Origin: a virus
DNA length: 64,000 bases
IMG/VR virus record: IMGVR_UViG_3300045988_113377
Span: 1 to 64,000 of that record
Reading direction: 5' to 3' (one strand)
Shown here: in pieces, positions 35,355 through 60,000 of the stretch
Numbering within the stretch: position 1 is the first letter of the stretch
How the letters are laid out: the number at the start of each line of letters is the position of its first letter
The notes under the pieces: generated by a model
The model's input: only the letters and a program-made list of their open reading frames with translations
What the model was told of the DNA's origin: nothing
Databases searched by the model: none
Made by a program: the position numbers and the translations under genes

Positions 35355-35355
35355 T

Positions 35356-35643
35356 ATGGGAGTAAAAGAAATAAGAGAACTACTTAGACTCTACAATCTC
35401 GAACATAGTGTCGTCCAGAACAAAAGCTCTGGGCGCTATTCTATTATTCTTCACAATAACATCATAGGAACGAACGTAGATGGAGAGAAGGTAGTTGTAT
35501 TCAGGACCATTCCGGAAGGAAGCAACACGTTCTCTATGGAACGAAATAGATTCTATGAGGAATTTGTAGAGGTTTTTGATGACGATAAGGCGATTGAAGC
35601 CGTAAGACAATATTTTGAGAATAACAGGAATGATAGAGTGTAA
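35356..35643 (+). CDS. hypothetical protein (95 aa)
   Basis: ORF only. Confidence 0.45.
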   Translation: MGVKEIRELLRLYNLEHSVVQNKSSGRYSIILHNNIIGTNVDGEKVVVFRTIPEGSNTFSMERNRFYEEFVEVFDDDKAIEAVRQYFENNRNDRV

Positions 35644-35695
35644 GACGAAGATGGATTATATTACTATAGAAATGAGGTAAAACAACGATAAAACA

Positions 35696-44000: not shown

Positions 44001-47000
44001 TAAGATACGAAGCCTTGTTATTTGATTCGGTACGTGCCGACTGTTCTGATTCTACATCATTCCAAAACCGATCGTTGAATGACAGGTGACCTCCCAACAT
44101 AAGTGTCTTCAGCGCAGCTTCTCCTCCCAACTCGTTCTGAATCGTTCTCAATTTTTGCAAAAACGATTCTGATACGGCATTAGTGGCATTATTTGATTCC
44201 TTTCTCCAAACTTCATTTATAGCTTGTATTTCTTTGGCCATCTTAAGTTGGTCGCCGGTTTTTTCCACTCTCCTGGTTCCTACATATATGTATTCTGAAG
44301 CTGCTTCCTTACGTTGTTTACGAAGCAGTCCTTCTTCTTCGTAATTGCTGCTTTTAAAATAGGCAACCTCATCAAAATTACCACCGCTATCAATAAAAGG
44401 CTGCCTCAATATCCGTTTTTGCCGGGATAGGGCATTAAGGTATTCTTTGGTTGTTTGAGAAACCGGATGCCCTAATTCTTCTTCAGCCTTTTTGTATATG
44501 GATTCCATTCTTGTGGCATAACTTTCGCTAAATTCCAGTTCCGAATTTTCAGCATCCCACTTTTCCATCTGCTCTGTATAGATCTTTTCCTGCTCGATGG
44601 TAAAAATATCGGTATTAACTCTATCAGACGATGGTTTGAATTTAGCGTTTTCAGTAACCGTATTTCCATCCTTGTCAACTACTTCTCTTTTAAATACGTA
44701 ATTACGGTTATTGTCAACCACATCACCAATTTCTTCTTCTGATATCTCTATGTTCATGGCAGTCGCAAACGCTCGCATCTGCGCCAGCTTCTTATTACGA
44801 TCGTATTTAGCCATATCAAGAGCACTACGAAGGTAATTAGAAGTTTTGCCGTCTACTTTCTGAAGCAGTTTTTCAAATTCAGATTTGTTAAAACCATGCT
44901 TTTTCGCATATGCCAGGAAGTCGGATATGGCGGGCTGGGCATTCACCATCGCATTGTAATTGTCTTTGGCAATCATAGCTCCAAGAGCGTTATTGAACGG
45001 ACTGGAAGAATGCTCTAATATACCAAACCACCTACTTATCCAAGAAACATCGTGTTGAACCTTGTCAAAAAATTCTTTTACTCTCTTTACCTTATCTGCC
45101 GGCACATGAAGTTCGTTCATTAACTTATCAAGCAACGTACTTTCATCAAGGTCTTGTACTGATTTAATATCAGACTGAATACCATTGATGTCGGCAATGA
45201 CGGTATTGATCCTATTTGTATAATCCTGCTTTTCACGTTCATCAAATTCGGTACTTCTGTTACGGATATATCCTCGAAGATCGTTCATGATCGGAAGAAC
45301 CTGATTGTTGATAATATCTACGTTCTTTCGATCATTGGTATTGAAGTGAAGCTTACCGTCTTTGGTATCACCATGAAGGATGGTGTTCACCACATTACTT
45401 AAGTATCTGACCTGAGCTTCGGCTGTAGAGATCATGCTATTCATGGCAGCCGCCATCTCATTCTTGTCTATTTCGGTCTCTACTTTATTTATCTTATCTT
45501 CTATGGTCTTAAGCTGCTCAAGGGTCATAGACGTAGTTACAGCCCTATCAGAGCTTATCTGACGTAAGTCTCTTAAGGTTTTTCTTAGTGATCTGATCTT
45601 AGACTCAAGAAACTTGTTCTTGTTCATAGAAGAAAGGGAGTATAATGTAAAATCATTATCCTTTAACAGAGAGGTATCAAATCCTTTATCTATGTCGGTA
45701 ATAGCAAGATCACGAATGTTTTTAATAACGTTATTCAAATCTTGTCTTTGGGTAGATAAAGCTGATTTAAGCCAGCTTACGATTCCAGAGAGAAGCTGCC
45801 GGACGCGCCCCAGGAAGGAGGTGGGCTCTACCGGCGCCTGTGCTGTGCCGGTCTGCATCTCCCTGGCAAGGATCTTTCCAAGAATTTCTCTCCTAACAGC
45901 ATTATCAAGCTCGGATCCTTCATATACCTTACCGTATGTATTATAATACTGACCTGCATACTGGTTCCACTCTTCCGTACCTTCTACATCTTGCAGAACA
46001 GCCTCAACAGCATTCTGATCTCTGTATGCCTCTACAAGGAAGTGGGATGTTTCTTCTACTAAATCAGATAAAGTAGCATCTTCACCAACTGCTATTACGT
46101 TATTGGCAATATCCGCCAATGCCTTAGCAGAAGGTTCATGCCCGTATTTGGTTTGGTACTTCTCTATATAATCGGTCATACCTATGACACTAACGCCAAG
46201 CGTTTTCAGTATCTCGACAATAGAATTTCGTTGATCACGTTCCTGCCTGCTATAATCTGATACGATCTTAGCTTTAGTATCAGCATAAAGATCGTTGTCT
46301 TCTAATATGAATGAAACTACAAGCGCATCAAAATGATCGTACTTAGCATCCAATTCATTGTATCTTCCTGACTTAAGATCGTTCTTTATCTGCTCTTTGC
46401 TAACCCTTTCCGTTCCTCCGGTGGCGAGCCTCATAGTTACCTTACTATTATCCAACGAGCTTATGGTTATCATACCTTGGTCGTTCATGGAAACATCTGA
46501 ACCAAAATGATTACGGAGCTCGGTGTAGGATAAGGCTGAATTGAAAAGTCTAATTTGTCCTGTATGACCTTCTCCTGTAAGATAATAGCTTCTTGTTTCA
46601 GGATCGAATATCTTAGATCCGGACAAAAGACCTTTCTTTATAAGGTAGTTAATTATACCACCTTTTGTTGATAAAGAAGTAGAAGCAGAAGCGGTCATGA
46701 CCGGTATAAAAGATTTGGGATTATTAAGAACATACCTTCCAGCTTTGTAAGTAATGTCTGCCACGCCATCCCAGGCAGATTCTTGAACGGTGCCTGATAA
46801 GAATCCTATTCTAATATCATTTCCGCCAGAGCGAAGAGCTTCTCCGTAATCTTCAAATAATTGATTACGATCGTTCATGAAAAACAAACGAGGCTCTCCG
46901 GTCTGATACGTTACACCCACAGGATTAGAATCTGTCTGTGGTAGCTCTTCTGGGCTAAATATCTTAAGACCGTCTTTTATAACCATATAATTAACACCCT

Positions 47001-47514
47001 TATCCTGTACCATAGATACGGGAGTGAAGTCCGAAGATATAGCATCTTGTAGATACCGCCCTGCGTCTATTCCCGGTCCTTCCGGTACGGAAATACTTGA
47101 CGGGACCATAGCATCTACCAACATAATATTATCACCCAGATCTTGGCTGTAAAATCCAAAGCCCGATTCTCGGATTTCATAAGGTGCATCTGATTTTGAC
47201 ACAAGAACAGGGTTACTCATCTTAGAAGCCTTATCCAGCACCCTTTCCCTGTAGGCTTCCGGAATAAGATCGATGTTGGATTTCACCTTATTGTAGGCCT
47301 GTTTGTTGATAGGCACTCTCTTTCTCCAGTCGCCAAAAGCCTTTAAGAACTTATTAGAAAATACGGTTTTAAAAACAGTAGTAGCCCGTTCCCTATTCTC
47401 CATAAGAGGAATAGATGCTATTTTATCAAACAACATAGACCTGTCCCCTGATCTGGTAGAGACAGAAACAACTTTCTTTTTATTATCTCTTTTAATAATA
47501 CACGTTGATGTCAT
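41092..47514 (-). CDS. giant protein (2140 aa), probable virion/ejection-associated protein; function unassigned
   Basis: uninterrupted 6.4-kb ORF; no SD; late-strand location. Confidence 0.7.
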   Translation of the reverse strand: MTSTCIIKRDNKKKVVSVSTRSGDRSMLFDKIASIPLMENRERATTVFKTVFSNKFLKAFGDWRKRVPINKQAYNKVKSNIDLIPEAYRERVLDKASKMSNPVLVSKSDAPYEIRESGFGFYSQDLGDNIMLVDAMVPSSISVPEGPGIDAGRYLQDAISSDFTPVSMVQDKGVNYMVIKDGLKIFSPEELPQTDSNPVGVTYQTGEPRLFFMNDRNQLFEDYGEALRSGGNDIRIGFLSGTVQESAWDGVADITYKAGRYVLNNPKSFIPVMTASASTSLSTKGGIINYLIKKGLLSGSKIFDPETRSYYLTGEGHTGQIRLFNSALSYTELRNHFGSDVSMNDQGMITISSLDNSKVTMRLATGGTERVSKEQIKNDLKSGRYNELDAKYDHFDALVVSFILEDNDLYADTKAKIVSDYSRQERDQRNSIVEILKTLGVSVIGMTDYIEKYQTKYGHEPSAKALADIANNVIAVGEDATLSDLVEETSHFLVEAYRDQNAVEAVLQDVEGTEEWNQYAGQYYNTYGKVYEGSELDNAVRREILGKILAREMQTGTAQAPVEPTSFLGRVRQLLSGIVSWLKSALSTQRQDLNNVIKNIRDLAITDIDKGFDTSLLKDNDFTLYSLSSMNKNKFLESKIRSLRKTLRDLRQISSDRAVTTSMTLEQLKTIEDKINKVETEIDKNEMAAAMNSMISTAEAQVRYLSNVVNTILHGDTKDGKLHFNTNDRKNVDIINNQVLPIMNDLRGYIRNRSTEFDEREKQDYTNRINTVIADINGIQSDIKSVQDLDESTLLDKLMNELHVPADKVKRVKEFFDKVQHDVSWISRWFGILEHSSSPFNNALGAMIAKDNYNAMVNAQPAISDFLAYAKKHGFNKSEFEKLLQKVDGKTSNYLRSALDMAKYDRNKKLAQMRAFATAMNIEISEEEIGDVVDNNRNYVFKREVVDKDGNTVTENAKFKPSSDRVNTDIFTIEQEKIYTEQMEKWDAENSELEFSESYATRMESIYKKAEEELGHPVSQTTKEYLNALSRQKRILRQPFIDSGGNFDEVAYFKSSNYEEEGLLRKQRKEAASEYIYVGTRRVEKTGDQLKMAKEIQAINEVWRKESNNATNAVSESFLQKLRTIQNELGGEAALKTLMLGGHLSFNDRFWNDVESEQSARTESNNKASYLKMAHDIISSTTSDRDATDVDSIVKDIEKNKAIIKEIIGNNRDVADIGEINEATFTSSERDAFRAASEAIEADYAILIDYAKMVGLEDIDKYLTKSSKAENEVNQSYLNALADSKEVEWKFVQRHTTAKKAKRIQALRDKLFKAADNRYLFTVSETNYLSEKLGISKELDGRDFRNAVNAKMVSLFLNNTREEGVEEANAIVNEFARSQVFSYYKRMAPTGYAAMIDKIGRGEIDVAQMVKDVQNGTSTQDYGMDISYLSFDPARAWVAESEAENSGRNPDYVKDHGYGHRMPKKSLYRDESYFNDFGIKYDADGNEVATKNVEQWNMIQKLKEIKRQSLDLYKEQSPNLYAIPQISKQDIERVEGLGINFKNTVRNFVSDLCLDRVDDSLYGKTRQGEVYDPEDRLRSIPKYYIYELENQDDVSHDFGYSYSMLMMQSSLYNEKQKSIELAQGLEQMLLNKQFEGGKKAEATQAYQMFRDFFNDHYYGIRMNTKKLTVNIGGYTVDLTRIMMAVERFMSVMNLALSPFVAATGALTGHINLIMESAVGQYISKDSLKYASAEFSRLAPSCIAETGDIDRKSKLYVIGERMGIFNIRNRMYGAGYNRAARTLMRSPMYAFMEILNYPLDPQVMIATMDNVRYYKGRFYTFQDFKMEKERGKEQSTIKREWNALKDRTLWSMVDVVDGKVVVKPGSGVTVEEVETQMAITRNQVRSLSQICNGSLNEENRTAASRNWIARFMTAHRGWLVLSAQRLWKRRGFNFQTMQEEEGLSITLKNMIAKTFSLASESGMKNIIDAWNENKDNMNEVEKTNLKRLSVYAGTFLIMQAVSMLLAGWRDDDENEESWLTQFGSYVGFRTINEIASQMPFIMELNVVDIINDPFVMGRKLKDLTDLRNYSLDKVTSGTYKGESKSFRQLAKQTFIKQWYNIKTPEDVARAYNWWQQTNNKSMMFFIGATPDSEGDDDVSYK

Positions 47515-47561
47515 AGTAAAACATTTTTGTTATAAGACAAAGGTAGTTAAAAATCAAGCAT

Positions 47562-47604
47562 ATCATAAAAAATAAAGCCATCTAACTTCTCAGTCTGATG
47601 GCTT
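47562..47604 (-). terminator. rho-independent terminator (AAGCCATC/GATGGCTT) for minus strand
   Basis: 8-bp perfect stem 47575-47582/47597-47604, U-tract on minus strand. Confidence 0.55.
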
Positions 47605-47659
47605 AAAAATAATATGGAAAAAAAATAATTATAACTTGACGCCAATTGTCAAGTTCAGC

Positions 47660-47983
47660 TTATATGTAATGCATGTACCCATCTCGGTGTATAAACCTTC
47701 CCGATTCAAAGCGCTCAATATCTTCAGGGCAAATAGGGCCCGAATCCTCTCTCCTGGCTTCAAACCAAAGCCCCGGCTTACGAAGTCGGCAAGTTATGAT
47801 ATAGTTAAAGCAATTGTGCGTAAAATGGAAAACAGATCCTACAGGGAAATACCTATCAGCTTGAAATACGATTCTTTTTCGTTTAGTATCAAACGTGATA
47901 TCTCCTACTATCTTAGCCACGTAATAGCTTCTGCCATTTAACGTTTCATCTGTCTGCGGTATCCAATAATAACCTCTTGCCAT
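47660..47983 (-). CDS. hypothetical protein (107 aa) in terminator-bracketed mini-unit
   Basis: ORF between two hairpin terminators. Confidence 0.45.
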   Translation of the reverse strand: MARGYYWIPQTDETLNGRSYYVAKIVGDITFDTKRKRIVFQADRYFPVGSVFHFTHNCFNYIITCRLRKPGLWFEARREDSGPICPEDIERFESGRFIHRDGYMHYI

Positions 47984-47992
47984 GCCACAAAT

Positions 47993-48036
47993 ATAAAAAA
48001 AAGTCGGATAACTTACGTACCCGACTTTATTATTTG
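47993..48036. terminator. bidirectional terminator (AAGTCGG/CCGACTT with A-tract and T-tract)
   Basis: 7-bp stem 48001-48007/48021-48027 flanked by A10 and T-rich runs. Confidence 0.5.
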
Positions 48037-48086
48037 TTTAAATAGTTCAATTCCGCCATTTTTTTATGATATGTCCTGCTTGGTAA

Positions 48087-48437
48087 TCATATGATAAACA
48101 TTTCTTTCAAGATACTATTTTTTATACTATATATCAATTTCATCTCATCTCTATCATATACGTCAAAAAAGGATTCACTTAAGTTCTTTGGATTTACATT
48201 CAGTTGAATTATGCAATTACCGGTATAAACCTTAATTCCGTAATTATCAGAGTATATATCCTGCATAGTATCAAATGTCTCAATTAAATTTTCAACAAGG
48301 GCTCTGTTAAATGAAAAAGATTCTTTACCATCACCTTTAAATGTGATATGATCTAAATCCCTGTTGTCAAATTCATACTCTAACTGATTGCCGTCCATCA
48401 TATCATAAAATATTGACTTTCTGATTATAAATCCCAT
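48087..48437 (-). CDS. hypothetical protein (116 aa)
   Basis: ORF only. Confidence 0.5.
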   Translation of the reverse strand: MGFIIRKSIFYDMMDGNQLEYEFDNRDLDHITFKGDGKESFSFNRALVENLIETFDTMQDIYSDNYGIKVYTGNCIIQLNVNPKNLSESFFDVYDRDEMKLIYSIKNSILKEMFII

Positions 48438-48453
48438 ATTATTTTGTTTTTAG

Positions 48454-48759
48454 TTAATATAAATCTTCTGAATACAATTGTTCTCTAACGGCATTCCTAT
48501 CTACTACCATTTCCTGATTATTGTTTCTAACAAGTTCAGATGCCTCCTCTCTTGTTAAAAACCGATTCTTGCTTGTCAAAAATCCTTGAACACTGCGGTT
48601 TTTATGGGCTATACCGTATGCCGCAAGTTGAGATAGTATAGAGGGGTGTCTCAATCCACAGAACACGGCGCCGGATGGTATATTGGTGGGCTGATGGGGA
48701 CGCTTCTTGCCGTCCTGCACCCAGATGGCGGCGCATATTACTATTTCTTTATTATACAT
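48454..48759 (-). CDS. hypothetical protein (101 aa)
   Basis: ORF immediately downstream of iscB. Confidence 0.5.
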   Translation of the reverse strand: MYNKEIVICAAIWVQDGKKRPHQPTNIPSGAVFCGLRHPSILSQLAAYGIAHKNRSVQGFLTSKNRFLTREEASELVRNNNQEMVVDRNAVREQLYSEDLY

Positions 48760-48796
48760 GATACGTTTTTCTATTAAATTTATTAAATCTATTCAT

Positions 48797-50017
48797 TTAC
48801 TTTAATATAATCGGATGCCTCTTCCCTCTAATGAGTTTAAACTTTTTGCGTGAAACATCTTTTGAATTTTCTCCGTTGAAATCCCTGATATTGAAACTCC
48901 CTGATTTTCTCCTTCCATAAACAAAACATATTTTATTATTATACAACACTTTATCAAACAACCTAAAACCAAAAACCTCAAAAGGAGCTTGATTGTTTTT
49001 CTTCTTTCCTCCTTTTAAAATTTTCATTTTATGTATTTGCCTATTATGCCTACGAATTAAACGTTTTAAATATTGACATCCGATTCGTTTCGCATTAATG
49101 TTCTTAGAAATGACAAACGCGTCGGATGTATGGGATTTTTCAATCCCGTATTTAATCCGATTATGTTTCGTAATGTAACCAAACGTCATAGAAACTCTGT
49201 CGTATCTGGATCTCAGTTCTTCATACAACTTCCATTTCATGATCCCCATTACGGCTGCGTCGCGTAGCGACTTGCCTCTTCTGATCTTTAAATCTATATT
49301 ACCTTTATGGTATTCTTTGTGACAAGTTTCACATAAGGTAATAAGATTGGATGGGGAATCTCCACCTGTCTTTCGTGATTCAATATGATGAACGTTAAGA
49401 ATCGCATCTTTCGATTTCCCTTTACAATACTGACATTTATGTCCATCTCTTGCTAAAACATATTCCCTAACGTTCCAAAATCCAAGTTGATCACCCTCCT
49501 GATATTCTTTACCAGATATCTCAGGATTGTTAATCTTTTGAGTATCGAATTGAGCTACCTCAACAACAATACGAGATATTGGTAATATAGAACATACATT
49601 GTCAATAACACGAATATGAGCGTCTACTTTGTACCGCACCGAAGGTGCTATCCATCCTTGACGTTTGTTTTTCACCCTGTTGTCAAAACGAGGTTTTCTA
49701 TATCTCAATCTATTTCGTCTCGTTCTTCTCGACTCTCTTCTGGTAGACAAAAGATCTACAATATCATTTCTAAGAATTACCTCACTACTGTAAAGTTCTT
49801 TGCTTTTCGTCGTAGCTGATAGACCAACATGCTTAGTTCCAGCATCAACGCCTAACACAATTTCTTGTTTGTAATCGGATGTGACGTACATTAATTTGAT
49901 GGTAAACGGACATAGGTTCACAACGACTGCCTTGTTTTCTTTAAGCAGTCGTCTTACCTTACCATGCCTTGTTGTAGGCATCATAGGTTTACCATTTATG
50001 TCTTGTACGTACACCAT
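48797..50017 (-). CDS. iscB: IscB, OMEGA RNA-guided nuclease (PLMP domain, RuvC-I, Arg-rich bridge helix, RuvC-II, HNH, RuvC-III, C-terminal TAM-interacting domain)
   Basis: N-terminus VYVQDINGKPMMPTTRHGKVRRLLKENKAVVVNLCPFTIKL matches the IscB PLMP domain; GVDAGTKHVG (RuvC-I Asp); RRESRRTRRNRLRYRKPRF (bridge helix); VVEVAQFD (RuvC-II Glu); CQYCKGKS...NVHHIE...CETCHKEYH (HNH); KSHTSDAFVI (RuvC-III His/Asp). Confidence 0.85.
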   Translation of the reverse strand: MVYVQDINGKPMMPTTRHGKVRRLLKENKAVVVNLCPFTIKLMYVTSDYKQEIVLGVDAGTKHVGLSATTKSKELYSSEVILRNDIVDLLSTRRESRRTRRNRLRYRKPRFDNRVKNKRQGWIAPSVRYKVDAHIRVIDNVCSILPISRIVVEVAQFDTQKINNPEISGKEYQEGDQLGFWNVREYVLARDGHKCQYCKGKSKDAILNVHHIESRKTGGDSPSNLITLCETCHKEYHKGNIDLKIRRGKSLRDAAVMGIMKWKLYEELRSRYDRVSMTFGYITKHNRIKYGIEKSHTSDAFVISKNINAKRIGCQYLKRLIRRHNRQIHKMKILKGGKKKNNQAPFEVFGFRLFDKVLYNNKICFVYGRRKSGSFNIRDFNGENSKDVSRKKFKLIRGKRHPIILK

Positions 50018-50379
50018 ATCTACAAACGTTTTTAATGTTTATTCAACATAAGTCAGGAATATTTCATCCTGTTAGTACCCATCGCCAATGTTATAAGAGG
50101 TTTTGATGCAAGCAACACTGTTTCGCAAATACACTACTCCTGTTTAATCGCTTGCCTTAGGGCTACGGACTTGGGCAAACATCCGTAGGTAACTATCTAT
50201 TCTCAAATAACGTAGCCTTAGTTTCAAGGCTTAGGCTAATATCCGGACCATTTCTGGTACATTAAAACCTTATAATGAAATTATATTGTTTTAATGTTAT
50301 TTCGGATATACAGATATACTTTTTACCCCCAATCGATTCTTTTTATCTTACGACCTAATTTAAGCCGTTCTAAAGCCTG
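50018..50379 (-). ncRNA. candidate omega-RNA of IscB (structured non-coding leader directly upstream, same strand)
   Basis: 362-nt ORF-free interval with multiple mutually exclusive helices (GGCTACGG/CCGTAG/CGTAGCC, TAGCC/GGCTA) consistent with a pseudoknotted scaffold; position matches known IscB-omegaRNA architecture. Confidence 0.55.
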
Positions 50380-51033
50380 TTAGAATGTCATGCCATGACG
50401 AGGCAGTTTGAGATACTTTTCAAGTCTGTCGGAGGCTTCATTTGGTGTATGGCCATCGTATTCGAAAGCGGTTTCTCTTTCAGGAACATCAAACAAATCC
50501 CAGTATTTGCTTTCATAGTGATTAGATACCTGACCGGTAGGTAGGATCGCCATCACAATAAACCAATCATCAGAACCGAAGCATTTTTCTCCGTCGCTGT
50601 GTCTCCTTGATTTGCAAACTTCAACCTGTCCGCTTCTGGCTAATAGATTAAAGAAGGCAGCGTTATACAACATGCGATACCGATACAATTCATTGAAAGT
50701 GTGGTATCCGTCAGAGACTTCTCCCACGTCTACAGGCTTCTTGTTTTGAATACTACCCAAAATATTCTCTATATAGAGCTGTATTTTATACATACCCATT
50801 TCGGTGTGGCCGTATTTGTTCAAGATATTATTGACATCGTATTGTATATTAAAATCTTTTTCAAATTCTACTTCAGGATGATTAGGATAGTAGTAATCTA
50901 CTGATGCTTCTAACACAGACTTGATATGCTCTACTATCCTCGTGGCATCATCATGTTTTAAGAAATTCTTGAATCCCTCAACGAATTTAATATCTTCTTC
51001 GATTGTTGATTCGAACTCTTCTTTTGTCATCAC
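50380..51033 (-). CDS. hypothetical protein (217 aa)
   Basis: ORF only. Confidence 0.55.
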   Translation of the reverse strand: MMTKEEFESTIEEDIKFVEGFKNFLKHDDATRIVEHIKSVLEASVDYYYPNHPEVEFEKDFNIQYDVNNILNKYGHTEMGMYKIQLYIENILGSIQNKKPVDVGEVSDGYHTFNELYRYRMLYNAAFFNLLARSGQVEVCKSRRHSDGEKCFGSDDWFIVMAILPTGQVSNHYESKYWDLFDVPERETAFEYDGHTPNEASDRLEKYLKLPRHGMTF

Positions 51034-51083
51034 TCTAATTACATCTTTTTTTTAAATCGTCTAATCCCATGATTTATTTTAAA

Positions 51084-51725
51084 TTAGTTGTTATTATACT
51101 TTTTTATCCTACAATACAAATCCAATAAGAACTCAGCAGAAAAACCATCCCATGCATTATTCTGCCAAATATCTACTTTGTTAATAAACCAAGACCATGT
51201 AGGACCATCATATGAAGAATCAGATGATGATCCCAATCCGATTTTCTCCATTTCATTCGCCACATCAGAATAAGGATCTAAATCGACTCCCCTAATCATG
51301 TTAATAATATCACCCTTGTCTAATGTAAATTGAAACCGCTCCTTGTTAGTAAGCGAATCTTGATTCAATTTACCAGTCGCAAGCCATTCTCCATCATGAT
51401 ACAATTCGGCAAGTTTCTTTACCTTATTTTTAAGAAAAGAATACTCTTGTGTGACTTCTATAAAATCAGCTTCGTTAGCTTCACCCTCTATGAAGATAAC
51501 GGTTTTGCTTCCAGGTCTATGATCGTCTAAGCTTGCCGGGATTCCCAATATCGTCCATCCTTTAAACTCAGCTATCTTAAAACGCATGACATCAAACACC
51601 TTATAGAAATCATCACAATCTACAGATTCTATTACCTTAATATCCTCTTCTGTGAATTTACCTCGTATTGGAATAACGTGATGACCGGGGCAGCCATCGG
51701 TTCCGAAATATGCGATTCTAACCAC
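51084..51725 (-). CDS. hypothetical protein (213 aa)
   Basis: ORF only. Confidence 0.55.
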   Translation of the reverse strand: MVRIAYFGTDGCPGHHVIPIRGKFTEEDIKVIESVDCDDFYKVFDVMRFKIAEFKGWTILGIPASLDDHRPGSKTVIFIEGEANEADFIEVTQEYSFLKNKVKKLAELYHDGEWLATGKLNQDSLTNKERFQFTLDKGDIINMIRGVDLDPYSDVANEMEKIGLGSSSDSSYDGPTWSWFINKVDIWQNNAWDGFSAEFLLDLYCRIKKYNNN

Positions 51726-51745
51726 GATATTTACAATATTTTAAT

Positions 51746-51961
51746 TTATTTTGCTAAAACATTCATATAACATGGCACATCTACCACATCTCTTCTACGA
51801 AGTCCCTTATCAAAATAGGAAACCATATAAGTATTTTTACCTTCGTGATCAGGTCTGGGATCAAAACATTCAAAAACGAATCTTGTTATACCTTCCAAAT
51901 GACCAAGCATGAAAACAAATTCGCCACTGTATCTTTTATTAGCCAATTCTTCTACAGTCAT
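51746..51961 (-). CDS. hypothetical protein (71 aa)
   Basis: ORF; ATGA overlap with upstream gene. Confidence 0.4.
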   Translation of the reverse strand: MTVEELANKRYSGEFVFMLGHLEGITRFVFECFDPRPDHEGKNTYMVSYFDKGLRRRDVVDVPCYMNVLAK

Positions 51962-52185
51962 AATCTGTCCCCTCCTAATCCTGAATTGATGCTAACGTAC
52001 TTAACACGGACATCATTTCCACGTCCAAGCTGACCCCAGCCGGGCGATGGCGTTCCCTTGGCCGGAGCAGGGACAGCCCTAAGCCGAGACCAGTCCTGCT
52101 TTTGTCTCATGGCTTCAGCCTCTTTGTAATATCGGTTACACAGTTCTTGATCTTCGTAACCAACGTAATCTTCCTTATTTTCCAT
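51958..52185 (-). CDS. hypothetical protein (75 aa)
   Basis: ORF only. Confidence 0.4.
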   Translation of the reverse strand: MENKEDYVGYEDQELCNRYYKEAEAMRQKQDWSRLRAVPAPAKGTPSPGWGQLGRGNDVRVKYVSINSGLGGDRL

Positions 52186-52239
52186 AAAAAATACTTTTTC
52201 AACAAATGTACGACATTCATGAATTAATTAGATTTAAAA

Positions 52240-52290
52240 TAAAACAATATGAATTAAAATAAAAACCCGATACGTTAAAATCGCATCGGG
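52240..52290 (-). terminator. rho-independent terminator (CCCGAT/ATCGGG) for minus strand
   Basis: stem 52266-52271/52285-52290 then U-rich run on minus strand. Confidence 0.5.
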
Positions 52291-52581
52291 CCTGGTATTG
52301 AAAAAACAGGTTCAGATCTTGGGTAAAGACTCGAGCCAATTTTTAACATCTTTATATTTAGGGTCTTTGTCTATTCTATCTCTCAGTTCATGCAATGCTG
52401 AGTCCATAACCGTATTCGGTACGCCAATCAACTCTCCTATTAAATACAAGGGTGTTTTATTTGATTTAGATTCGTGTGCTATATTCATGTCAAAAAAAAA
52501 GTTATGTGAAACAAACCGGCCACGGGTATTCTATTGCCCGCCGACCGGTATAACATTTTTTTTATTCCTTTTTTTTCCAAA

Positions 52582-52604
52582 CGGGAAAAACGGGAATGCG
52601 GGAA
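52582..52604. repeat. three direct CGGGAA repeats at 8-9 nt spacing
   Basis: cgggaa at 52582, 52591, 52599 preceded by long T-tracts. Confidence 0.4.
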
Positions 52605-52688
52605 TCATATTTTTCACTATGGCTCCCGCACCACCGTTAGCCCCGGCTCCATCTAAAAGGACGATTTTATCACCACCCATAATTTTAT

Positions 52689-52709
52689 AGTATTTAATTG
52701 TTAAACATA
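52689..52709 (+). promoter_or_regulatory. copy 2 of 21-nt exact repeat AGTATTTAATTGTTAAACATA
   Basis: identical to 3619-3639. Confidence 0.45.
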
Positions 52710-52726
52710 CGTGCATGATGCACGTA
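52708..52726. promoter_or_regulatory. 19-bp perfect palindrome TACGTGCAT-G-ATGCACGTA (candidate operator)
   Basis: 9-bp perfect arms around a single central base; abuts the 21-nt repeat. Confidence 0.45.
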
Positions 52727-52803
52727 ACAAAGATCATGATTGCAGGGTGGAATATGGGTGTGTTTATTTCCTATAGAAGAGAAGTATTTTCACAAAAACA
52801 AGA

Positions 52804-52853
52804 AGAGATGAGTAAATATTACTATAAACTCATCTCTTAATTGCTTTTTGTTG
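52804..52853. terminator. bidirectional terminator (10-bp perfect stem AGAGATGAGT/ACTCATCTCT, T-tracts both sides)
   Basis: 52804-52813 pairs 52828-52837; ctttttgttg follows. Confidence 0.6.
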
Positions 52854-52862
52854 TAATGAAAT

Positions 52863-53516
52863 TCAAGCCATGTTACACAACTTGAATTTATATTCATCAA
52901 TTATATCATTCAAGTCACAATCTGATAAGTTGAACCATTCTCTGTATATTCCTTTGATATCGAATCTTGCATGAAGCTCGCTTTCTATGTCTTTATCCAC
53001 ATAAGCTATTAATGTTAAGTTATCTTCTACAACAGACAATCCAGATAGCCTTCTTTTTACATCAGAACTTTTACCTATTTTATAGAAACCATTATTATTA
53101 TTTCTTATTATATATGTAAAATATTTTATATATTTTTTATTATATCTACCAATAAATCTATGTGTTATATCTAATACACAATCTTCATTTTTAATATTAC
53201 ATAAATCAAATACATCGTGAATAAAATCTTTAAATAAAGACCTATCACACTTCATACAGATAATACATAGAATCGATTTGGGGAATAAATAATAGTCATG
53301 CCTAAATACATGACTATCATTATCTATTATTTGATTTCCATTATTATCATATCTGTATGATATATAATCTATCCCATCCTTAAAATCAAAAGATGATATT
53401 ACATCCTTTATCCAATGTTTAAAATCATACTTACATTCTAACAGTTTATGAACGTATTTTGCGTCAATCATCTTTCTGTCATTTATTAACACAAAAGGAA
53501 TAAAAGTATTATCCAT
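52863..53516 (-). CDS. Bro-N-like + T5orf172 (GIY-YIG-like) domain protein, AT-rich moron
   Basis: C-terminal GFYKIGKSSDVKRRLSGL...NLTLIAYV...ELHARF...REWFNL matches T5orf172 signature; gene about 27% GC. Confidence 0.55.
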   Translation of the reverse strand: MDNTFIPFVLINDRKMIDAKYVHKLLECKYDFKHWIKDVISSFDFKDGIDYISYRYDNNGNQIIDNDSHVFRHDYYLFPKSILCIICMKCDRSLFKDFIHDVFDLCNIKNEDCVLDITHRFIGRYNKKYIKYFTYIIRNNNNGFYKIGKSSDVKRRLSGLSVVEDNLTLIAYVDKDIESELHARFDIKGIYREWFNLSDCDLNDIIDEYKFKLCNMA

Positions 53517-53694
53517 AATAAAAAAAATAGGCCCAAAAGAGAATGTCAGATCCCACTATGACAAACTCTAATGAGCCAAAAATATCTTTCAACATCAAAC
53601 AACCAGAGGTAAGATCTCGTTGTTCATTGTTTCTGGAACAAAGATAAGAACGGGATTTTAAATAACAAATATTTTAATACTTTTTAAATCAAAC

Positions 53695-53720
53695 CAGGGC
53701 CCGCATTACTGCGAGCCCTG
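53695..53720 (-). terminator. GC-rich interrupted hairpin (CAGGGC-CGCA/TGCG-GCCCTG)
   Basis: 10 paired positions with tetraloop TTAC. Confidence 0.45.
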
Positions 53721-53803
53721 ATCTACACTAATCTAAACTAATACCATGAAAAACTTAAATCTAAAAACTAAAGAACACACAAATGTAGGAAAATGTATGC
53801 CTT

Positions 53804-54001
53804 TCACAAAGAATCTGTATCCTGTTCTTTTGTGTGATTCAAGACATGGGATATAGTTCTGATACTTAATCCGGTTTGATTTTGTATCAGATTATAAATA
53901 TAGGATTTTGAAACTACAGTTCTTAATTGACCTAAATCATTCATAATGTTTTTATACATAAGATGAATGCTGTTGTTACGTTTGATGGTACTGATTCTCA
54001 T
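53804..54001 (-). CDS. hypothetical protein (65 aa)
   Basis: ORF only. Confidence 0.35.
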   Translation of the reverse strand: MRISTIKRNNSIHLMYKNIMNDLGQLRTVVSKSYIYNLIQNQTGLSIRTISHVLNHTKEQDTDSL

Positions 54002-54134
54002 TTCCTACTGTTATTAGTTACGTCCGGTTCTTACTTTTTCCTATTTCTATAATCCCTTCCTGAAACTAATATTGCAAACTTAATAAAAATAATTCATAAA
54101 CAATGAAAATCTAACTTTTCTTGTATGTTATTGA

Positions 54135-54160
54135 TATACGTGCATATATGAGAAAAGTGA
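54135..54160 (-). terminator. hairpin AAGTGAG/CTCACTT downstream of 752-aa gene
   Basis: 7-bp stem, 12-nt loop; no clean U-tract. Confidence 0.35.
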
Positions 54161-54224
54161 GACTTTCACAAGCCTCACTTCCCAAATTATAACCATGAAA
54201 AAACTATATATATGTACACAAAAA

Positions 54225-56483
54225 TTACCTACATTCCAATTTATTAAGATCATCCAATTCAGGCTTGCTTACGGTCATGTCTTGCGTCAAGCCAGATCTG
54301 TTTTGGTATGGAGCGTAATCGGTTTCTACCGTCTTAGCCTTCTGAGTAGAATCGTATTTCACCTCTGATTCGGTTCCTGTCAGATTTTGGTAGATAGAGC
54401 CGGAACTACTCTCGCTTACTTTAGACCATATCTTATTACCTACTCTTATAAAATTATCATAAATACCTTCTGCTGTTATAACACCATCTCGCTCTACGAT
54501 ATTAGGGCCCGATTTTTCTTTTAACAGATACGGGTGCCTGGTGTAAAAATAGTGTTCAAAATCATTCCCGGCATACGAAGAGTCATACTTCTCCAAATAA
54601 AACAATTCTGATAAAGAAGGGTCGGTACTGGTCATGCTATAATCAAACAACATCAACCTGTCTTTTCCAGATAAAGATAATTCTATTGATTTCAAAATAT
54701 CAGGATCATCAGAAATAAGGCCCAAAGATGGACCAGGTTTGAAGTCAAGATACTTATAGGCATTATCATATAATTTTGTTTTATGGAGTTTGTTGTCAAG
54801 GTAAGATTGGTATAAATCGAATAAGGATAATGGGTTTTCGCTATCTTGTTTTTTGTTCATGTATCGACTATACTCCCGATCCACATCCACGTAAGGAACG
54901 TCAAGTACCGCCGGGTGTCCAAACGCCATCCTGGTCATTATCATGTCCTCCGTGTTCTGAGAATCCATGAACGATCTGACGTATTTTTTAATGGAAGCCA
55001 TGAGCGTATTATTATCTACGTTCCGTACTTTCTCTTTATCCAAAACGCCGTTCTTAAAACAAGATTCAGGATATATTTTAGTAGAAAAATGAGTTAGGTT
55101 GTGCTTGGCTAACACTGTTGATATTTGATACATCTCGTTAATATCATCTTTGCTGATCCTTTGATATAGATTATCTCCTACCTTAAGCAATGAATGTTTC
55201 TCAAACGCTTCTACTGGGTCTATATTGGATTCAGAATAAACGATATTCAAATTATCCATATACTCCGGCAATAATTCAGAATAATAATCTGTGCTATCAC
55301 CAAGAACATCATCTATAGAAGATGCCAGCGTTGGAGCATAATTTACATCATTATGCCTGGCCACATAAATATCAAGATCCAGCATCAAATTATCTATCTT
55401 ATTCAAAGATTCTTCTGTGCCATCATAAGTTTCCGATGTCCCTATTATATCTATGCCAAACCACGTACAAGCCTCTTCTATATCCCATATCATGCTTCTT
55501 AAATCGGATTCGGTGTCGGCATTAGCCCTATGTAAATAAGCCGATATACGAGCTCTTAGGAACTCTATTTTGCCAGGATTGTAATAAGACAGATCTTGTA
55601 ACTTAGACAAGGATCTTCTCTTGCCTTCTACCACATCATCCCCTTCTATGTTTATTACCGGAATCTTATTCGTAGATGAGAACTCATCAAACATAGATTC
55701 GGCAAATTCTTTATCAGAAACGAATTTCTCAACCAGTTCAGGATATGAATTTCTCAACGATTCAAAAGCAGATGAAAATTCAGAAAAGTTTTTTATGCCG
55801 GCTACTGTTTTACGCATAGCATAATAAAGCTCAGAAGGATTATATGGTACCTTTTTACCAAATTGGTTAAACACTCCCTCCTTGTAAACAATAGGACCAT
55901 ACTGATAGTCAACAGACATAAAATAATTATCCTTTTCCCTATCATGTTCGTTAATAGAAGAATCTATTAACTTTCTCATGGAAGTCGAAACCTCGTTTAA
56001 AACAGAAGGATCGGATAAAATACGACTTATTTCTGTTTCATCATACAAACCGGATCTCCTTAATTTCTGCTCATTCAGTATCAAACTGCCATCTACATAA
56101 AAATCGAAGAGAATAGCATTAGACAATGAAGACGCATTGAAAAAATAATGAGTAGACAAAAGGAAATCCCTTACATCCTTAACATCCTGAGCCGTTAAAG
56201 GATCAGCAAAATAAGTCTGACGCTTCATATACGACAGCACGTCTTCTAAAAGAGGTTCACCATTGGGATCGGTATTAAACATCTCTCCTGGAGCCGGGTT
56301 ATTCCAATGACCGTAATACGACAAAAAACCAGGAGTGTAAGCCTTAGCCCATACCTGAAGAGCTCGTTCGCTATTCCCTAATAATTTCAAGGCACTTTCG
56401 TAAAGAACGGAAGGCTCCCCGTTAGGAGCCTTAACCCGTTTTATTTCATTTTCCTTTTTTTCTATCTGACATTTGACACCCAT
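54225..56483 (-). CDS. large hypothetical protein (752 aa), probable virion component
   Basis: long ORF in late block. Confidence 0.65.
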   Translation of the reverse strand: MGVKCQIEKKENEIKRVKAPNGEPSVLYESALKLLGNSERALQVWAKAYTPGFLSYYGHWNNPAPGEMFNTDPNGEPLLEDVLSYMKRQTYFADPLTAQDVKDVRDFLLSTHYFFNASSLSNAILFDFYVDGSLILNEQKLRRSGLYDETEISRILSDPSVLNEVSTSMRKLIDSSINEHDREKDNYFMSVDYQYGPIVYKEGVFNQFGKKVPYNPSELYYAMRKTVAGIKNFSEFSSAFESLRNSYPELVEKFVSDKEFAESMFDEFSSTNKIPVINIEGDDVVEGKRRSLSKLQDLSYYNPGKIEFLRARISAYLHRANADTESDLRSMIWDIEEACTWFGIDIIGTSETYDGTEESLNKIDNLMLDLDIYVARHNDVNYAPTLASSIDDVLGDSTDYYSELLPEYMDNLNIVYSESNIDPVEAFEKHSLLKVGDNLYQRISKDDINEMYQISTVLAKHNLTHFSTKIYPESCFKNGVLDKEKVRNVDNNTLMASIKKYVRSFMDSQNTEDMIMTRMAFGHPAVLDVPYVDVDREYSRYMNKKQDSENPLSLFDLYQSYLDNKLHKTKLYDNAYKYLDFKPGPSLGLISDDPDILKSIELSLSGKDRLMLFDYSMTSTDPSLSELFYLEKYDSSYAGNDFEHYFYTRHPYLLKEKSGPNIVERDGVITAEGIYDNFIRVGNKIWSKVSESSSGSIYQNLTGTESEVKYDSTQKAKTVETDYAPYQNRSGLTQDMTVSKPELDDLNKLECR

Positions 56484-56509: not shown

Positions 56510-57040
56510 TTATAAAACCGACTTATACAATGACGGATCCCAAATTCCTTCTATATAAATCTCCGGAAAACTCAAACTGCCATCACGAAGAGTGGTGACT
56601 TCCAAGCTGGGAATGTTGAAAACAGTACTGGTATCACCAAAATTACCATTCAACTTGATAGCATTTCCGCTGTTATTAGCCTCATAATAAAAATAACAAT
56701 AATTTTCATTAATGCTTGGATCATATTCGTACCAATATGTTAGATCTTGTATATGATCTTCTATGTTACCAATTTTGTTTTCACCTAATATAAAAATACC
56801 ATTATTGCTATGATTATAAACCATAGATTCATAACCACCATAATTCCAATTACTATTAAACATTATGTAACTAACATCAGAACCATGATCTTTTAATACA
56901 GGTCCTATATGTATATGAATTTTATTAAACTGACATACATAAGGTCTTTTTCCTCCAAGCCTTTTTATATCTTCATTGGATAACTTATTATAACATCCTC
57001 CCACGAAATTATCCGCAGCATTAAAAAATCTCCTTCTCAT
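56510..57040 (-). CDS. MRRRF-family protein (likely start at internal Met 57040, MRRRFF...; ORF track extends to 57049 and overlaps the 2213-aa gene)
   Basis: third member with MRRRF N-terminus; Asn/Tyr/Gly-rich like fiber/lectin domains. Confidence 0.5.
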   Translation of the reverse strand: MRRRFFNAADNFVGGCYNKLSNEDIKRLGGKRPYVCQFNKIHIHIGPVLKDHGSDVSYIMFNSNWNYGGYESMVYNHSNNGIFILGENKIGNIEDHIQDLTYWYEYDPSINENYCYFYYEANNSGNAIKLNGNFGDTSTVFNIPSLEVTTLRDGSLSFPEIYIEGIWDPSLYKSVL

Positions 57041-57042
57041 AC

Positions 57043-60000
57043 TCAACACTCCTTATTTAACTCATTTATCGAATCCGAATTATCAGAACCTTCTACGAGA
57101 TTCTTATTCCTATCTATCTCTTCCTGGCTCATATTACTCATCATATTTTGTATTTTTCTACCAGATTGAGATAAAGAGCGGATGAATGCACTGGAACTTA
57201 TCTTAACTCCAAGATCCGGTTTTGCCCTAAACGCTTCACCGGTACTGATATTATACAAATCATACACACCTGAGTTCATATAGAATTTATATATCCAGTT
57301 TCCACCAGCTTTTTTGTACCCTAATTTGGTTAACTCGACTACACTCATACCAAATTTAATGCCATTACGACCCATTATCTTCTCCGGTATAGGTTCTACC
57401 TTAGCCGGAACAGATGTATATGCTTCATCACCGCCGTACAGGAAATAAGGGGTTGTCACCCTTGATATGTGAGTAAGCGGTTCTTCGGATATACGAGGCT
57501 CGTCTTTCGCAGCCTTATATTCTTCCCTTGGATTGGATATCCTAATAAAAGGATCGTATGTCAAAAAGGTTAAGCCGTATTCTACTTTATAACCTGATAC
57601 GCCGTTAAGATCCCTTATAGCCTTAGTCGTATGCGAGTGATTGATGGTGTCTATACCATACCTTGATTCCATATCGGTCATAATACTATTAACCTCATCT
57701 CCCTCTACATAAACCTCTTCTCCTTCCGGGATAGAGGTTATGCCGGCAGCCCTTCTAAGTAGCCATAAAGTGACTTCAGCAATGTCAGAGAACTTATCTC
57801 CGTTCTTCCTATAGTTATCTACTCTTCCTTCTTCATATCCAGGTAATTCGATATTTCCTTTAACTTCGACATTTGTTCTGGATTGTCCTTTGCCTTCTCC
57901 ATCTCCCTTTTTATCGCCATCTTCCTCAGTGCGTACTGCACCGCCTTCTGCACTTCCTTCTTTTCCATCATTTAAAATATTATCTGATTCTGACTCTATA
58001 GACTCCACGACAGCATCATACTCTGGTATGCCGCTAAGGAAATCTGCTACGTTATTCAAAAACTCTATTTTTTCCTCGTTTGTCATATCAAGGCTTTCCA
58101 CGGGCTCCCATATGGCAGGCAAGTTGTTTGATTTTATTGCAGTAGAAACATCTTCTACAGTTTTATTATCCACCGTAGGCAAAACTTTAGAAACCAAACT
58201 ATTGATATCAGATTCCATTTTTTCTACTTCCTCTTTTGTGCCATATTCTTTTAGGGTATCCATGCCATTGACTCTAAGAGAATAATTCAAAGCCTTGCTT
58301 GGAACAAAATTAATATATTTCAAAAAGTTTTTCAACTCTGATATAATTTGTTCGTCAGATCTTGGCCCAACATAATCAACCACCACCTGATCTGTTTGAG
58401 AACGAAGCCAAGAAACGTATTCTTCTAAGGTCTTACCACCTTTACTGGAAGGAGTGGATATTTTATCACCTACTGTTCCTTTAGGTTCTAATCCCATTTC
58501 TTCCTTAAGGCTTTTAGGATTACCTCTCTCACGAAGAAACCTCAAATCACCTCCTACAATCTTCCTTGCTATAAAATCAAAAATATTAGCATAAGACGGC
58601 AATCCTTCTTTTTCTATATGAGATTCTATTTCGTTTAACATAAGAGAGAAGTTTTTCCTGGAGGTACGCTTCTTGCCAGGTAAAGACCACGCAGCTTGTG
58701 CCGCAGGAGTCGGCTGAGCTAATGGCGCCGGCTGAGTCTCCCGGACAGCCCCTTCCTCTGGCATTTCCTCTTCATAAACATCCACGTCTTCTTTAGAAGT
58801 AACGGTCTTACCCTCATCAGAGAAAGGAAGATCATCCTCTATAAGTGATTTAGGTCTGGAAGATGATTTACCAAACTGAATCCTGATCTTAGGAGCGACA
58901 AACATCTCACCTTCGAAATCTATTCCAGATTCTACTTCAGACGTCACAATGTCTTTCACACTCCTACTTCCATCTTCTACCCACTTAACAACATCAGGAA
59001 CCGTAGATAATTTTTCTATAGCCTCACGAGCTTTTCTAAGCCCTGAAATAGGATTCAAATACGATACTTGATACGAAGCCGGATCAAGGCCTAACTTGGT
59101 TAGATACGCATTAAGATCTTGTATATCATCTTGACCCATCTGTAGCAATTCAGAATCACCAGATTCAAGCAGCATATCTATAAAAGACATCCATTTCTGC
59201 CCTTCCTCTGATTCCACAGAACGTAGGCTAACTGGGAAAAGATAATTAAGACCGTTTTTACCTTTGATGACAACTACCGGAACTCTTACATTTTTGTAAT
59301 TATTCCCCTTGTCATTTAATATAGAATAAGCAAATGGGAAGCCTGTGTATTTAGATCCGTTCTTAAGCACGACTTTGCCATTTAATACATATCCGACATC
59401 AGATACTTTTTCAGCACCTTTTTCGGTAATAGGGAGATTTTCTACCTGGCCATATCCTTGACCGTTCACCTTCATGTTAAACACCGGTCTTCCGGGAAGA
59501 GTCTGGGCAACAACATGCGTGCCGACGCCGATGGTAGCCGACCGGCCGGCGTCCTTCTTCCACTTGTTGAAAGCCGTTCTTCTTATCTTACTTATACCAT
59601 CTATGCCTCCTGTATCAGCTTTTACAACAGAAACGAATCTGTTCCCACTCATGACCTTGATAACCATATTGGATACCAGTTTATTCTCAGCAGATTCTAT
59701 TCTTTTTTTATCGCCGGACTGAACAGCGTCATTGTATTCGGCAAAAAGAGACTGATTATAGGTATCATTTACATCTATTTCGAGATTGACCTTATCTCCT
59801 TTTTTCAAAGAAGATAATGCTTCCTGATCTATTTTATCTACCTCATTCTCTCCGAATCCGACACCTGTTCTGTACGGAACCAATTCATCTGAATCAAGAC
59901 GCTTATAAACCAAAGAATAGGAATTACCCACGTCCTGAATAGACACATCTGTGTAGCGATTAAGAACACGAGCCGATTCTTTGTCTATAGACCATCTCGC

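Follow-up and report, generated by a model that had tools for sequence, protein, structure and literature searches.

Deletions, cassette exchange and an IscB/omega-RNA element in a fast-changing accessory region of a phage genome

We analyzed a stretch of viral DNA of 64,000 nucleotides (IMG/VR record IMGVR_UViG_3300045988_113377, positions 1 to 64,000; hereafter, the window) and, within it, the interval 47515-54224 of the minus strand. This island of 6,710 bp separates two large open reading frames (ORFs) of 2140 and 752 aa, and carries, among small genes, a gene for the RNA-guided nuclease IscB together with its omega-RNA. We consider it likely that the interval is a dispensable, hyperplastic region that has been reshuffled by deletions, swaps of cassettes, insertions of elements of the IS200/IS605 type, and deletions that are bounded by an ATG and replace the guide of the omega-RNA. 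The coordinates of all features are given in Table 1.

The closest deposited genome is that of phage csAssE-Sib (OR575929, 151 kb, human gut), with 95% identity over 82% of a 20-kb query. The annotation provided by its depositors includes names of the crAss001 type (ring, muzzle), a diversity-generating retroelement, and two TnpB genes; IscB and a Y1 transposase are both absent from it. The phage is apparently a crAss-like gut phage of roughly 150 kb, and its host is probably one of the Bacteroidales. The position of the island in csAssE-Sib is near the end of the virion gene block, ahead of replication genes on the opposite strand, and the minus strand of the window carries every gene between 39.8 and 63.7 kb.

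The relatives used for comparison are metagenome-assembled contigs, to which we refer by L numbers where one has to be singled out. For the island, we used the best 80 of 263 IMG/VR loci with a homologue of the 752-aa protein (93-99% identical), and for IscB the best 80 of 328 IMG/VR stretches encoding it. Gene orders and presence counts were obtained by clustering ORFs over the 61 islands that have both flanks. These islands range from 1,500 to 9,864 bp in length and show 60 distinct gene orders, while the flanking segments align in every locus that extends that far. The longest islands have one common order of about 19 genes, the smallest has three small ORFs in 1.5 kb, and each gene of the island other than that of the 107-aa protein is absent from at least one genome that is almost the same elsewhere. 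The original prediction had asked if the 2140-aa and 752-aa genes adjoin each other elsewhere. They do so in no relative; the 107-aa gene is always retained between them. The island is a semi-conserved block of about 9 kb that was pared down in various ways, accessory but not a random assortment, and most differences between genomes are deletions and not gains. The earlier view that these are not core genes is therefore borne out. It is hardly credible that the region is ordinary core, with small genes conserved for a late or structural role. The small genes share their strand with those of the virion, one of them (107 aa) is universal, and the depositors of csAssE-Sib named one gene, present only in relatives, "spike protein", but such a reading leaves unexplained the losses of all the other genes in near-identical genomes and the reduction of the smallest island to three ORFs.

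Two deletions with microhomology can be traced in the window. Relative to csAssE-Sib, it lacks 2.7 kb holding five genes, and the junction is an 8-bp microhomology, CGGTGGTG, at 52629-52636, which leaves a chimeric 68-aa ORF. This region had been described as a gene-poor segment of 675 bp with unusual repeats. The segment is real, but it is not empty, as it consists of the scar of this deletion, an intact 58-aa gene, and two hairpins; the repeats are two tandem duplets of 9-10 nt whose significance is not evident. The second microhomology deletion, at 48031-48069, removed a 56-aa gene (present in 30 of the 61 relatives) and a 105-aa gene (51/61), of which the first 24 nt or so remain.

Cassettes are replaced at one slot, which holds either an AntA/T5orf172 gene, a Bro-N/KilAC gene, as is the case for about 23 relatives, or, in the rest, some 95 bp. 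In csAssE-Sib this slot is occupied by Bro-N/KilAC, and the exchange relative to the window extends from the shared start codon past the allele-specific terminators: the hairpin of the Bro-N/KilAC allele differs from the one at 52803-52838, and the DNA specific to the AntA/T5orf172 allele spans 52801-53508. The encoded protein matches the Pfam families T5orf172 (32.6 bits, cut-off 20) and MUG113 (34.9 bits), with GIY-YIG below its cut-off (21.2 against 22.6 bits), and has only distant homologues, in unrelated phages. Its own hairpin, a GC content of 0.252, its presence or absence among genomes, and the three states of the slot make this cassette a moron. The original prediction of an AT-rich Bro-N/T5orf172 moron was thus right on the composition, the T5orf172 domain and the moron character, but the N-terminal domain is AntA, and Bro-N belongs to the allele of the relatives.

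The island had also been regarded as a hotspot for horizontally acquired cargo. It does contain mobile elements, beside the AntA/T5orf172 cassette. In its stronger form, in which the island is a landing pad mainly for defence and anti-defence genes and its diversity results from gains outside the phage lineage, we find this reading quite improbable. The extreme diversity in content, the foreign composition and distant homologues of AntA/T5orf172, and the presence of IscB and TnpB elements are in its favor. Yet, PADLOC returned no defence family, only generic HNH matches to IscB, and no defence or anti-defence function was assigned by Pfam, PHROG or NCBIfam. Most genes of the window are found at the same position in 33-57 of the 61 relatives and have a native-like GC content; the suggested analysis of composition singled out AntA/T5orf172 as foreign but not most of its neighbors. 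The GC content of the island as a whole is 0.343, against 0.372 for the whole window. Finally, the differences that can be traced are deletions with microhomology or with ends bounded by a motif.

Insertions of tnpA-less elements of the IS200/IS605 type account for further differences: IscB with its omega-RNA in the window and TnpB in relatives. IscB was found in 13 of the 80 loci, and in about 10-13 of the 61 islands. At least three families of TnpB elements are present at several positions of the island (L072 6818-8068, L058 465-1759, L045, L015, L067, and L062). One of these families has inserted cleanly 3' of AGAT, and caused no duplication, at two sites of the island, which indicates that transposition of the IS200/IS605 type operates on these phage genomes.

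The identity of the ORF at 48797-50017 as IscB, already proposed in the original prediction along with the omega-RNA, is secure, and its cleavage activity is predicted. The protein matches the Pfam families RRXRR (205 bits) and HNH (42 bits), and the NCBIfam equivalog NF040563, "RNA-guided endonuclease IscB", with 362 bits for a cut-off of 175. It aligns with the structure chains of OgeuIscB (E-values 1e-43 to 1e-45), including the GVDAG, HNH and HTSDAF motifs, and its dN/dS of 0.06-0.11 against six other copies points to purifying selection. The omega-RNA is a full-length match to the Rfam family HEARO (RF02033) at 50071-50309 on the minus strand (100.6 bits, gathering score 83). An alignment of 15 diverse copies gave 68 base pairs, 20 of which show compensatory changes. 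Helix P1 covaries between two types of scaffold (ATATCCG/CGGATAT in one, ATAATCG/CGATTAT in the other), and the constant boundary of the element is therefore the base of P1, that is, the limit between guide and scaffold. The element takes the place of about 380 bp of the IscB-less relatives (388 bp in csAssE-Sib), which encode the 3' end of a WDGH/DUF2829 gene and a 91-aa zinc-ribbon protein. Judged from its sequence, it is a member of the IS200/IS605 IscB/omega-RNA family. It shares with the family insertion beside a short motif with no target duplication and a guide-scaffold limit at a transposon end; a subterminal hairpin was found at the omega-RNA end only, and the search for a transposase gave no match. 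In general, tnpA is close to about 1.5% of iscB genes and no more (Meers et al., bioRxiv 10.1101/2023.03.14.532601). The absence of tnpA in cis is thus normal for iscB, and makes the element non-autonomous while leaving it within the IS200/IS605 family.

IscB is present in multiple copies in these phage genomes, and is rare in deposited phages, where homologues were found in 30 of 50,697 records with at best 50% identity. No bacterial source element was found across 185,579 species genomes, where identity reaches at most 60% with the exception of one contig. This 20-kb contig (L161, NZ_JBHMEP010000019.1, from an assembly of "Vibrio olivae") encodes an IscB 88% identical to that of the window, has a segment about 70% identical to window positions 34635-35122, and resembles a distant group of phages (L116-L119); it probably represents phage DNA in this assembly and not a gene of Vibrio. 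When the IscB of the window is compared with other copies (L036, L099, L104, and others), dS for the same position of the island is 0.35, far above the divergence of flanking phage genes (1-7%, protein). The omega-RNA modules look mosaic between copies, which, together with the high dS, suggests old and recombining IscB lineages.

The ends of the element follow a simple rule. Read in the sense of IscB, the layout is flank with the guide, scaffold, IscB, tail, and ATG. With a single exception, the island copies have the same 3' end, ...GAAAAACGTATC, directly followed by the ATG that opens the 101-aa gene (48757-48759 in the window). The exception, L059, ends at the ATG of the 116-aa gene. Counting all genomic sites, the 3' ends at 15 or more of them all abut an ATG. 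At the opposite end, the scaffold start is constant (ATATCC..., position 50309), and is preceded by at least 14 differing sequences, each of them a piece of an interrupted upstream gene. In the island we distinguished at least 11 primary left junctions of this type (type 1), and three with a second type of scaffold that starts with ATAATYG, one of which shares the site of L028. Several junctions recur in contigs from different metagenomes. Five type-1 junctions (the window, L188, L206, L060, and L082) fall in the final 130 bp of the WDGH/DUF2829 gene or the opening codons of the 91-aa gene; others lie within the WDGH gene (L075, L049), the 213-aa gene (L189, L013), and the 71-aa gene (L028, L102).

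We retrieved from other genomes the undeleted sequence for every junction. At 14 out of 14 independent type-1 junctions (11 in the island, 2 at other loci, and 1 of a solo omega-RNA) the undeleted sequence continues with ATG, usually ATGA. Given that ATG occurs at 2.4% of the positions of the full-length island (frequency 0.024), this has a probability of about 2e-23. If one grants that AT, which is shared with the scaffold start, is a microhomology, the G alone gives about 3e-9. The junction ATGs are mostly internal or out of frame, and are hence not start codons. As a pattern, adjacent deletions therefore extend from the first base of the omega-RNA scaffold to a flanking ATG. We considered the motif NATG, with N as a base of the element, and discarded it because the scaffold start defined by covariation and the undeleted sequences both place N in the flank, leaving ATG as the motif. 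ATG(A) corresponds to the motif TTCAT read on the opposite strand (ATGAA). In Geobacillus IscB elements, TTCAT is the target-adjacent motif (TAM) beside the left end, common to TnpA and IscB (bioRxiv 10.1101/2023.03.14.532601).

A solo omega-RNA illustrates the insertion of such elements. In L099 (1995-2351, about 356 bp), it separates CAGTGTT from ATGG, which are contiguous at the empty site of the window (30506, plus strand), and there is no target duplication. Elements with an omega-RNA and no protein are also present in L158 (7456-7714), and resemble PATEs. The same L099 has a complete IscB element (3650-5320) that replaces a 55-aa gene (window 31867-32036, plus strand) from its own ATG to the ATG of the next gene. 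At the place of a small gene of the window (19361-19590, plus strand), at least 20 relatives have an IscB element with the second type of scaffold, which has displaced all or part of the gene and whose IscB is 83-85% identical to that of the window; the site is "empty" in the window. It has at least five nested left junctions, all exactly at the scaffold start, and the undeleted sequence has the ATG for one out of five. Within the window element, the tail that follows the stop codon of IscB (48762-48799, minus strand) starts with ATGAAT, which contains all of the reverse complement of TTCAT and is located 37 nt inward of the outer ATG boundary; most of this tail is lacking in L085.

Could the junctions be produced without a transposase? 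They might arise from slippage or template switching at the stable P1 and the first hairpin, followed by selection for an intact scaffold, and with no role of IscB in spread. This is the main rival for the junction series, and one that we regard as unlikely. The scaffold start is indeed the base of a very stable structure (z about -5), and an 18-bp hairpin lies 8-12 nt from the omega-RNA end of the element. At the second site, small nested deletions that stop at the scaffold have no ATG on the far side, L015 lost its omega-RNA by a plain microhomology deletion (CAGGAT), and a weak tblastn test gave no match to TnpA. Slippage with selection accommodates these exceptions, but it does not account for the ATG rule: not for the ATG at the far end of all 14 type-1 deletions, whose G is unshared with the scaffold, nor for the ATG that abuts every 3' end of the element, nor for the duplication-free insertion of a solo omega-RNA beside an ATG.

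Several observations nevertheless weigh against transposase-type joining at ATG sites, which we favor. L036 and L093 are secondary derivatives produced by 4-nt slippage, and the type-1 junction of L060 is one base off the known undeleted sequence. With the second type of scaffold, the following ATG is lacking at one of the three island junctions and at four of the five nested junctions of the second site (around 19.4 kb). Neither a two-copy intermediate nor a simple insertion was seen in the island among the relatives examined. The last 126 nt at the IscB-distal end have no significant structure. Finally, a Y1 TnpA was not matched by tblastn in the window, in 2.6 Mb of loci from relatives, or in the complete csAssE-Sib, a weak negative since the query, the TnpA of IS608, was only approximate.

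It is also very improbable that the diversity is an artifact of chimeric metagenome assemblies across the repeated IscB element. The relatives are assembled contigs, and an IscB in multiple copies can mislead assemblers. However, the L013-type junction was found in three IMG/VR datasets (3300029006, 3300030248, and 3300045988), that of L028 in 3300029703 and 3300045988, and that of L049 in 3300014808 and 3300045988. The complete deposited genome of csAssE-Sib shows differences of the same kinds, and faulty joins would be expected somewhere inside the repeat rather than at its very first nucleotide, beside an ATG.

The joining of the element to ATG sites suggests a mechanism. A Y1 transposase supplied in trans would join the omega-RNA end to a new ATG site, either directly, by a one-step adjacent deletion, or in two stages, with a local hop and then recombination between the resulting pair of copies. 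Every joining event would delete the intervening genes and set a new guide of 16 nt, which would match the undeleted allele of sibling phages. In co-infection, IscB would cut these siblings, and recombinational repair would copy the element along with its deletion. A deeper deletion would remove the targets of the shallower variants and keep its own target in them. This asymmetry would render the process directional, and erode the island.

The guides and targets of the window can be compared with these expectations. The predicted guide, TAAAAAGTATATCTGT, is followed by the scaffold (ATATCC) in the window and by ATG in 40 IscB-less relatives. It is followed by ATA in csAssE-Sib and in one other genome, which is a possible case of escape. 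For four shallower variants, the targets are gone from the window, where their guides have no match as the corresponding DNA is deleted. For five deeper ones the window carries perfect targets: their predicted guides match 16/16, with the ATG, at 50694-50709, 51398-51413, 51614-51629, 51911-51926, and 51962-51975. There are also perfect matches in the window to the guides of two elements at other loci (31851-31866 and 30492-30506); the former, with its ATG (31851-31869), is the target of the L099 IscB element at the site of the 55-aa gene. A 32-nt inverted repeat upstream of the guide (50315-50346 and 53263-53294) was judged to be due to chance. From the relation between guides and targets, we infer that the element may home between co-infecting phages. 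Co-conversion of the 101-aa gene with IscB is not evident, since some IscB-less loci are closer to the window in that gene (96%) than loci bearing IscB. We put forward as a tentative idea, possible but less than likely, that IscB and the solo omega-RNAs would be RNA-guided gene drives between co-infecting phages, which ATG-to-ATG deletions would retarget in one step. Any new variant would be directed against all genomes that retain the deleted DNA, older IscB variants included, and would itself be immune to those older variants, in a directional "deletion ratchet". Solo omega-RNA elements could then be hitch-hiking drives, if IscB acts in trans.

This element has much in common with the IS200/IS605 IscB/omega-RNA (OMEGA) systems described in Geobacillus stearothermophilus (ISGst, bioRxiv 10.1101/2023.03.14.532601), such as an IscB with RuvC and HNH and a HEARO omega-RNA upstream on the same strand. 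As in ISGst, the guide is just outside the omega-RNA end of the transposon, the opposite end has the motif ATG(A), the reverse complement of TTCAT, there is no target duplication and no tnpA in cis, and there are protein-less relatives (solo omega-RNA, like PATEs). Unlike the ISGst elements, the ones described here have many copies in the genome of a lytic-type phage and no close bacterial relative, their guide is repeatedly replaced by nested, motif-bounded deletions on the guide side, and the likely partner for repair is a co-infecting phage and not the sister chromosome. The proposed homing recalls the free-standing homing endonucleases of T4-like phages and their "intronless homing" (SegF, SegB, Mob; PMC13565253), where the nuclease gene is between conserved phage genes. 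Here too, the nuclease is predicted to cut the nuclease-less allele of a co-infecting phage, and repair would copy the gene and neighboring DNA. The specificity of SegF, SegB and Mob is given by protein-DNA contacts, whereas here it would come from a 16-nt RNA guide derived from the flank, so that a change of junction would retarget the nuclease in one step. The insertion sequence (IS) gene drive by RNA-guided nucleases reported for multicopy plasmids (bioRxiv 10.1101/2025.02.20.638934) is similar in the idea that TnpB or IscB converts element-free copies of the replicon. It would differ in that the replicon here is the phage population in co-infected cells, and in that deletions would travel with the drive.

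In itself, a hyperplastic region that contains morons and nucleases is a familiar feature of phages. Like those of other large phages, this one has small accessory genes with their own terminators among essential genes, presence or absence between genomes, and atypical composition (AntA/T5orf172). It stands out by unusually fast change, which is partly tied to elements with RNA-guided nucleases. To our knowledge, the only natural role shown for OMEGA nucleases is the retention of transposons in bacterial chromosomes. In the literature searched, we found no description of a natural series of motif-bounded deletions that replace the guide of an omega-RNA, or of the one-way relation between targets.

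Table 1. Features of the island and its two flanking ORFs, in the order of transcription. Counts are relatives with the gene, out of 61; z-scores compare the folding of hairpins with that of shuffled sequences.
Feature	Position	Strand	Evidence or remarks
752-aa ORF	54225-56483	-	flank of the island
Hairpin	54152-54183	-	3' of the 752-aa gene; z -3.9; not in the original prediction
65-aa gene	53804-54001	-	57/61; partly deleted in the smallest islands
Terminator-like hairpin, GC-rich	53692-53723	-	3' of the 65-aa gene; -29 kcal/mol, z -6.3
AntA + T5orf172/MUG113 (GIY-YIG superfamily) gene, 217 aa	52863-53516	-	GC 0.252; 8/61
Terminator-like hairpin	52803-52838	-	part of the AntA/T5orf172 cassette; z -5.4
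Chimeric 68-aa ORF	52531-52737	-	5' end of a 354-aa Gly/Cys-rich gene (42/61) fused to downstream intergenic DNA
58-aa gene	52312-52488	-	50/61; "DNA binding protein" of the csAssE-Sib depositors
Terminator-like hairpin	52263-52293	-	3' of the 58-aa gene; z -3.6
75-aa and 71-aa genes, 4-nt overlap	51746-52185	-	55/61 and 45/61, respectively
213-aa gene	51084-51725	-	24/61; 12 bp in csAssE-Sib
WDGH-domain gene (PF25311), 217 aa	50380-51033	-	33/61
Predicted 16-nt guide, 5'-TAAAAAGTATATCTGT-3'	50310-50325	-	remnant of DUF2829-domain coding sequence
IscB/omega-RNA element, IS200/IS605 type, tnpA-less, 1,550 bp	48760-50309	-	comparison of boundaries with relatives
Omega-RNA scaffold	50018-50309	-	starts (50309) at the base of helix P1
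IscB ORF, 406 aa, intact, RuvC and HNH motifs	48797-50017	-	Pfam, NCBIfam, PDB
101-aa gene	48454-48759	-	PHROG 839 (unknown function); 41/61
116-aa gene	48087-48437	-	GC 0.282; 45/61
Second deletion scar, about 420 bp lost	48031-48069	-	comparison with csAssE-Sib and relatives
Terminator-like hairpin	48000-48028	-	11-bp stem, U8 run; z -4.2
107-aa gene	47660-47983	-	61/61, the only such gene of the island
Terminator-like hairpin with U-run	47575-47604	-	between the 107-aa and 2140-aa genes; -19 kcal/mol, z -5.1
2140-aa ORF	41092-47514	-	flank of the island; PHROG 37651 "virion structural protein"

The island is made up of small genes arranged in units that hairpins delimit. Its gene content departs from the original prediction in the segment 47660-48759, which has three small genes (107, 116, and 101 aa) and not four. 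The four genes announced for 50380-52185 were recovered (217 aa with the WDGH domain, 213, 71, and 75 aa), and the five hairpins that had been placed near 47575, 48001, 52266, 52804, and 53695 all fold better than shuffled sequences (z from -3.6 to -6.3). The WDGH gene is cut by a premature TAA at 50380-50382, where IscB-less relatives have GAA, and the IscB junction has cost it the C-terminal DUF2829 part. The same TAA is found in L055, which has the junction of the window. The leftover codons of the DUF2829 domain, up to the omega-RNA, are untranslated, and their final 16 nt (50310-50325) are the predicted guide. Pfam, PHROG and NCBIfam left the small proteins of the island with no assigned function, and PADLOC likewise yielded nothing for them. 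In particular, the 107-aa protein has no match in Pfam, PHROG or NCBIfam, and the 58-aa protein has none in Pfam. The 213-aa protein has a weak homologue in Bacteroides phage BS162P1. Single-sequence AlphaFold2 models were unusable for both the 107-aa (pLDDT 46.6) and the 213-aa proteins (pLDDT 39.6). A scan for sigma-70 promoters (58 found for 37 expected) was set aside, as the excess is small and the consensus is unsuited to a probable Bacteroidales phage.

The flanking giant genes had been called structural, and the sole basis for this label is the name of the PHROG family and the annotation of csAssE-Sib by its depositors. Sequence searches of PDB with the 2140-aa, 2213-aa, and 752-aa proteins gave zero matches, and a scan of the three for the DxDxD motif was negative. 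Hence, neither a structural role of the flanks nor one as virion RNA polymerase can be confirmed. We found nothing specific in the literature on csAssE-Sib or on IscB in crAss-like phages. A 179-aa gene (56510-57049, minus strand) that separates the 752-aa and 2213-aa genes has no DNA alignment with csAssE-Sib (gap at 56518-57027), while its neighbors are 93-95% identical between the two genomes; this is apparently a second spot of replacement, of a single gene. The early, replication half of the window (1-38000) also shows many indels relative to csAssE-Sib, e.g., at 6197-8844, 15741-16497, 17217-17834, 22195-22748, and 34513-35650, and the island is thus not the sole plastic region.

Taken as the combined outcome of deletions, cassette swaps and element insertions, the island accounts for the fast change of the accessory region in an abundant group of human-gut phages. 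The lineage offers dozens of natural variants of a single IscB element, with the sequence directly revealing their guides, targets and motif, and provides a compact IscB family of 406 aa with an apparently short, predicted TAM of the ATG type. It makes two ideas testable: that RNA-guided nucleases may serve as devices for homing or competition between viruses, and that guides may be replaced by adjacent deletions of the transposase type. If the "deletion ratchet" is true, it would explain much of the erosion and diversity of the island, and would be a natural example of guide turnover in an ancestor of Cas9.

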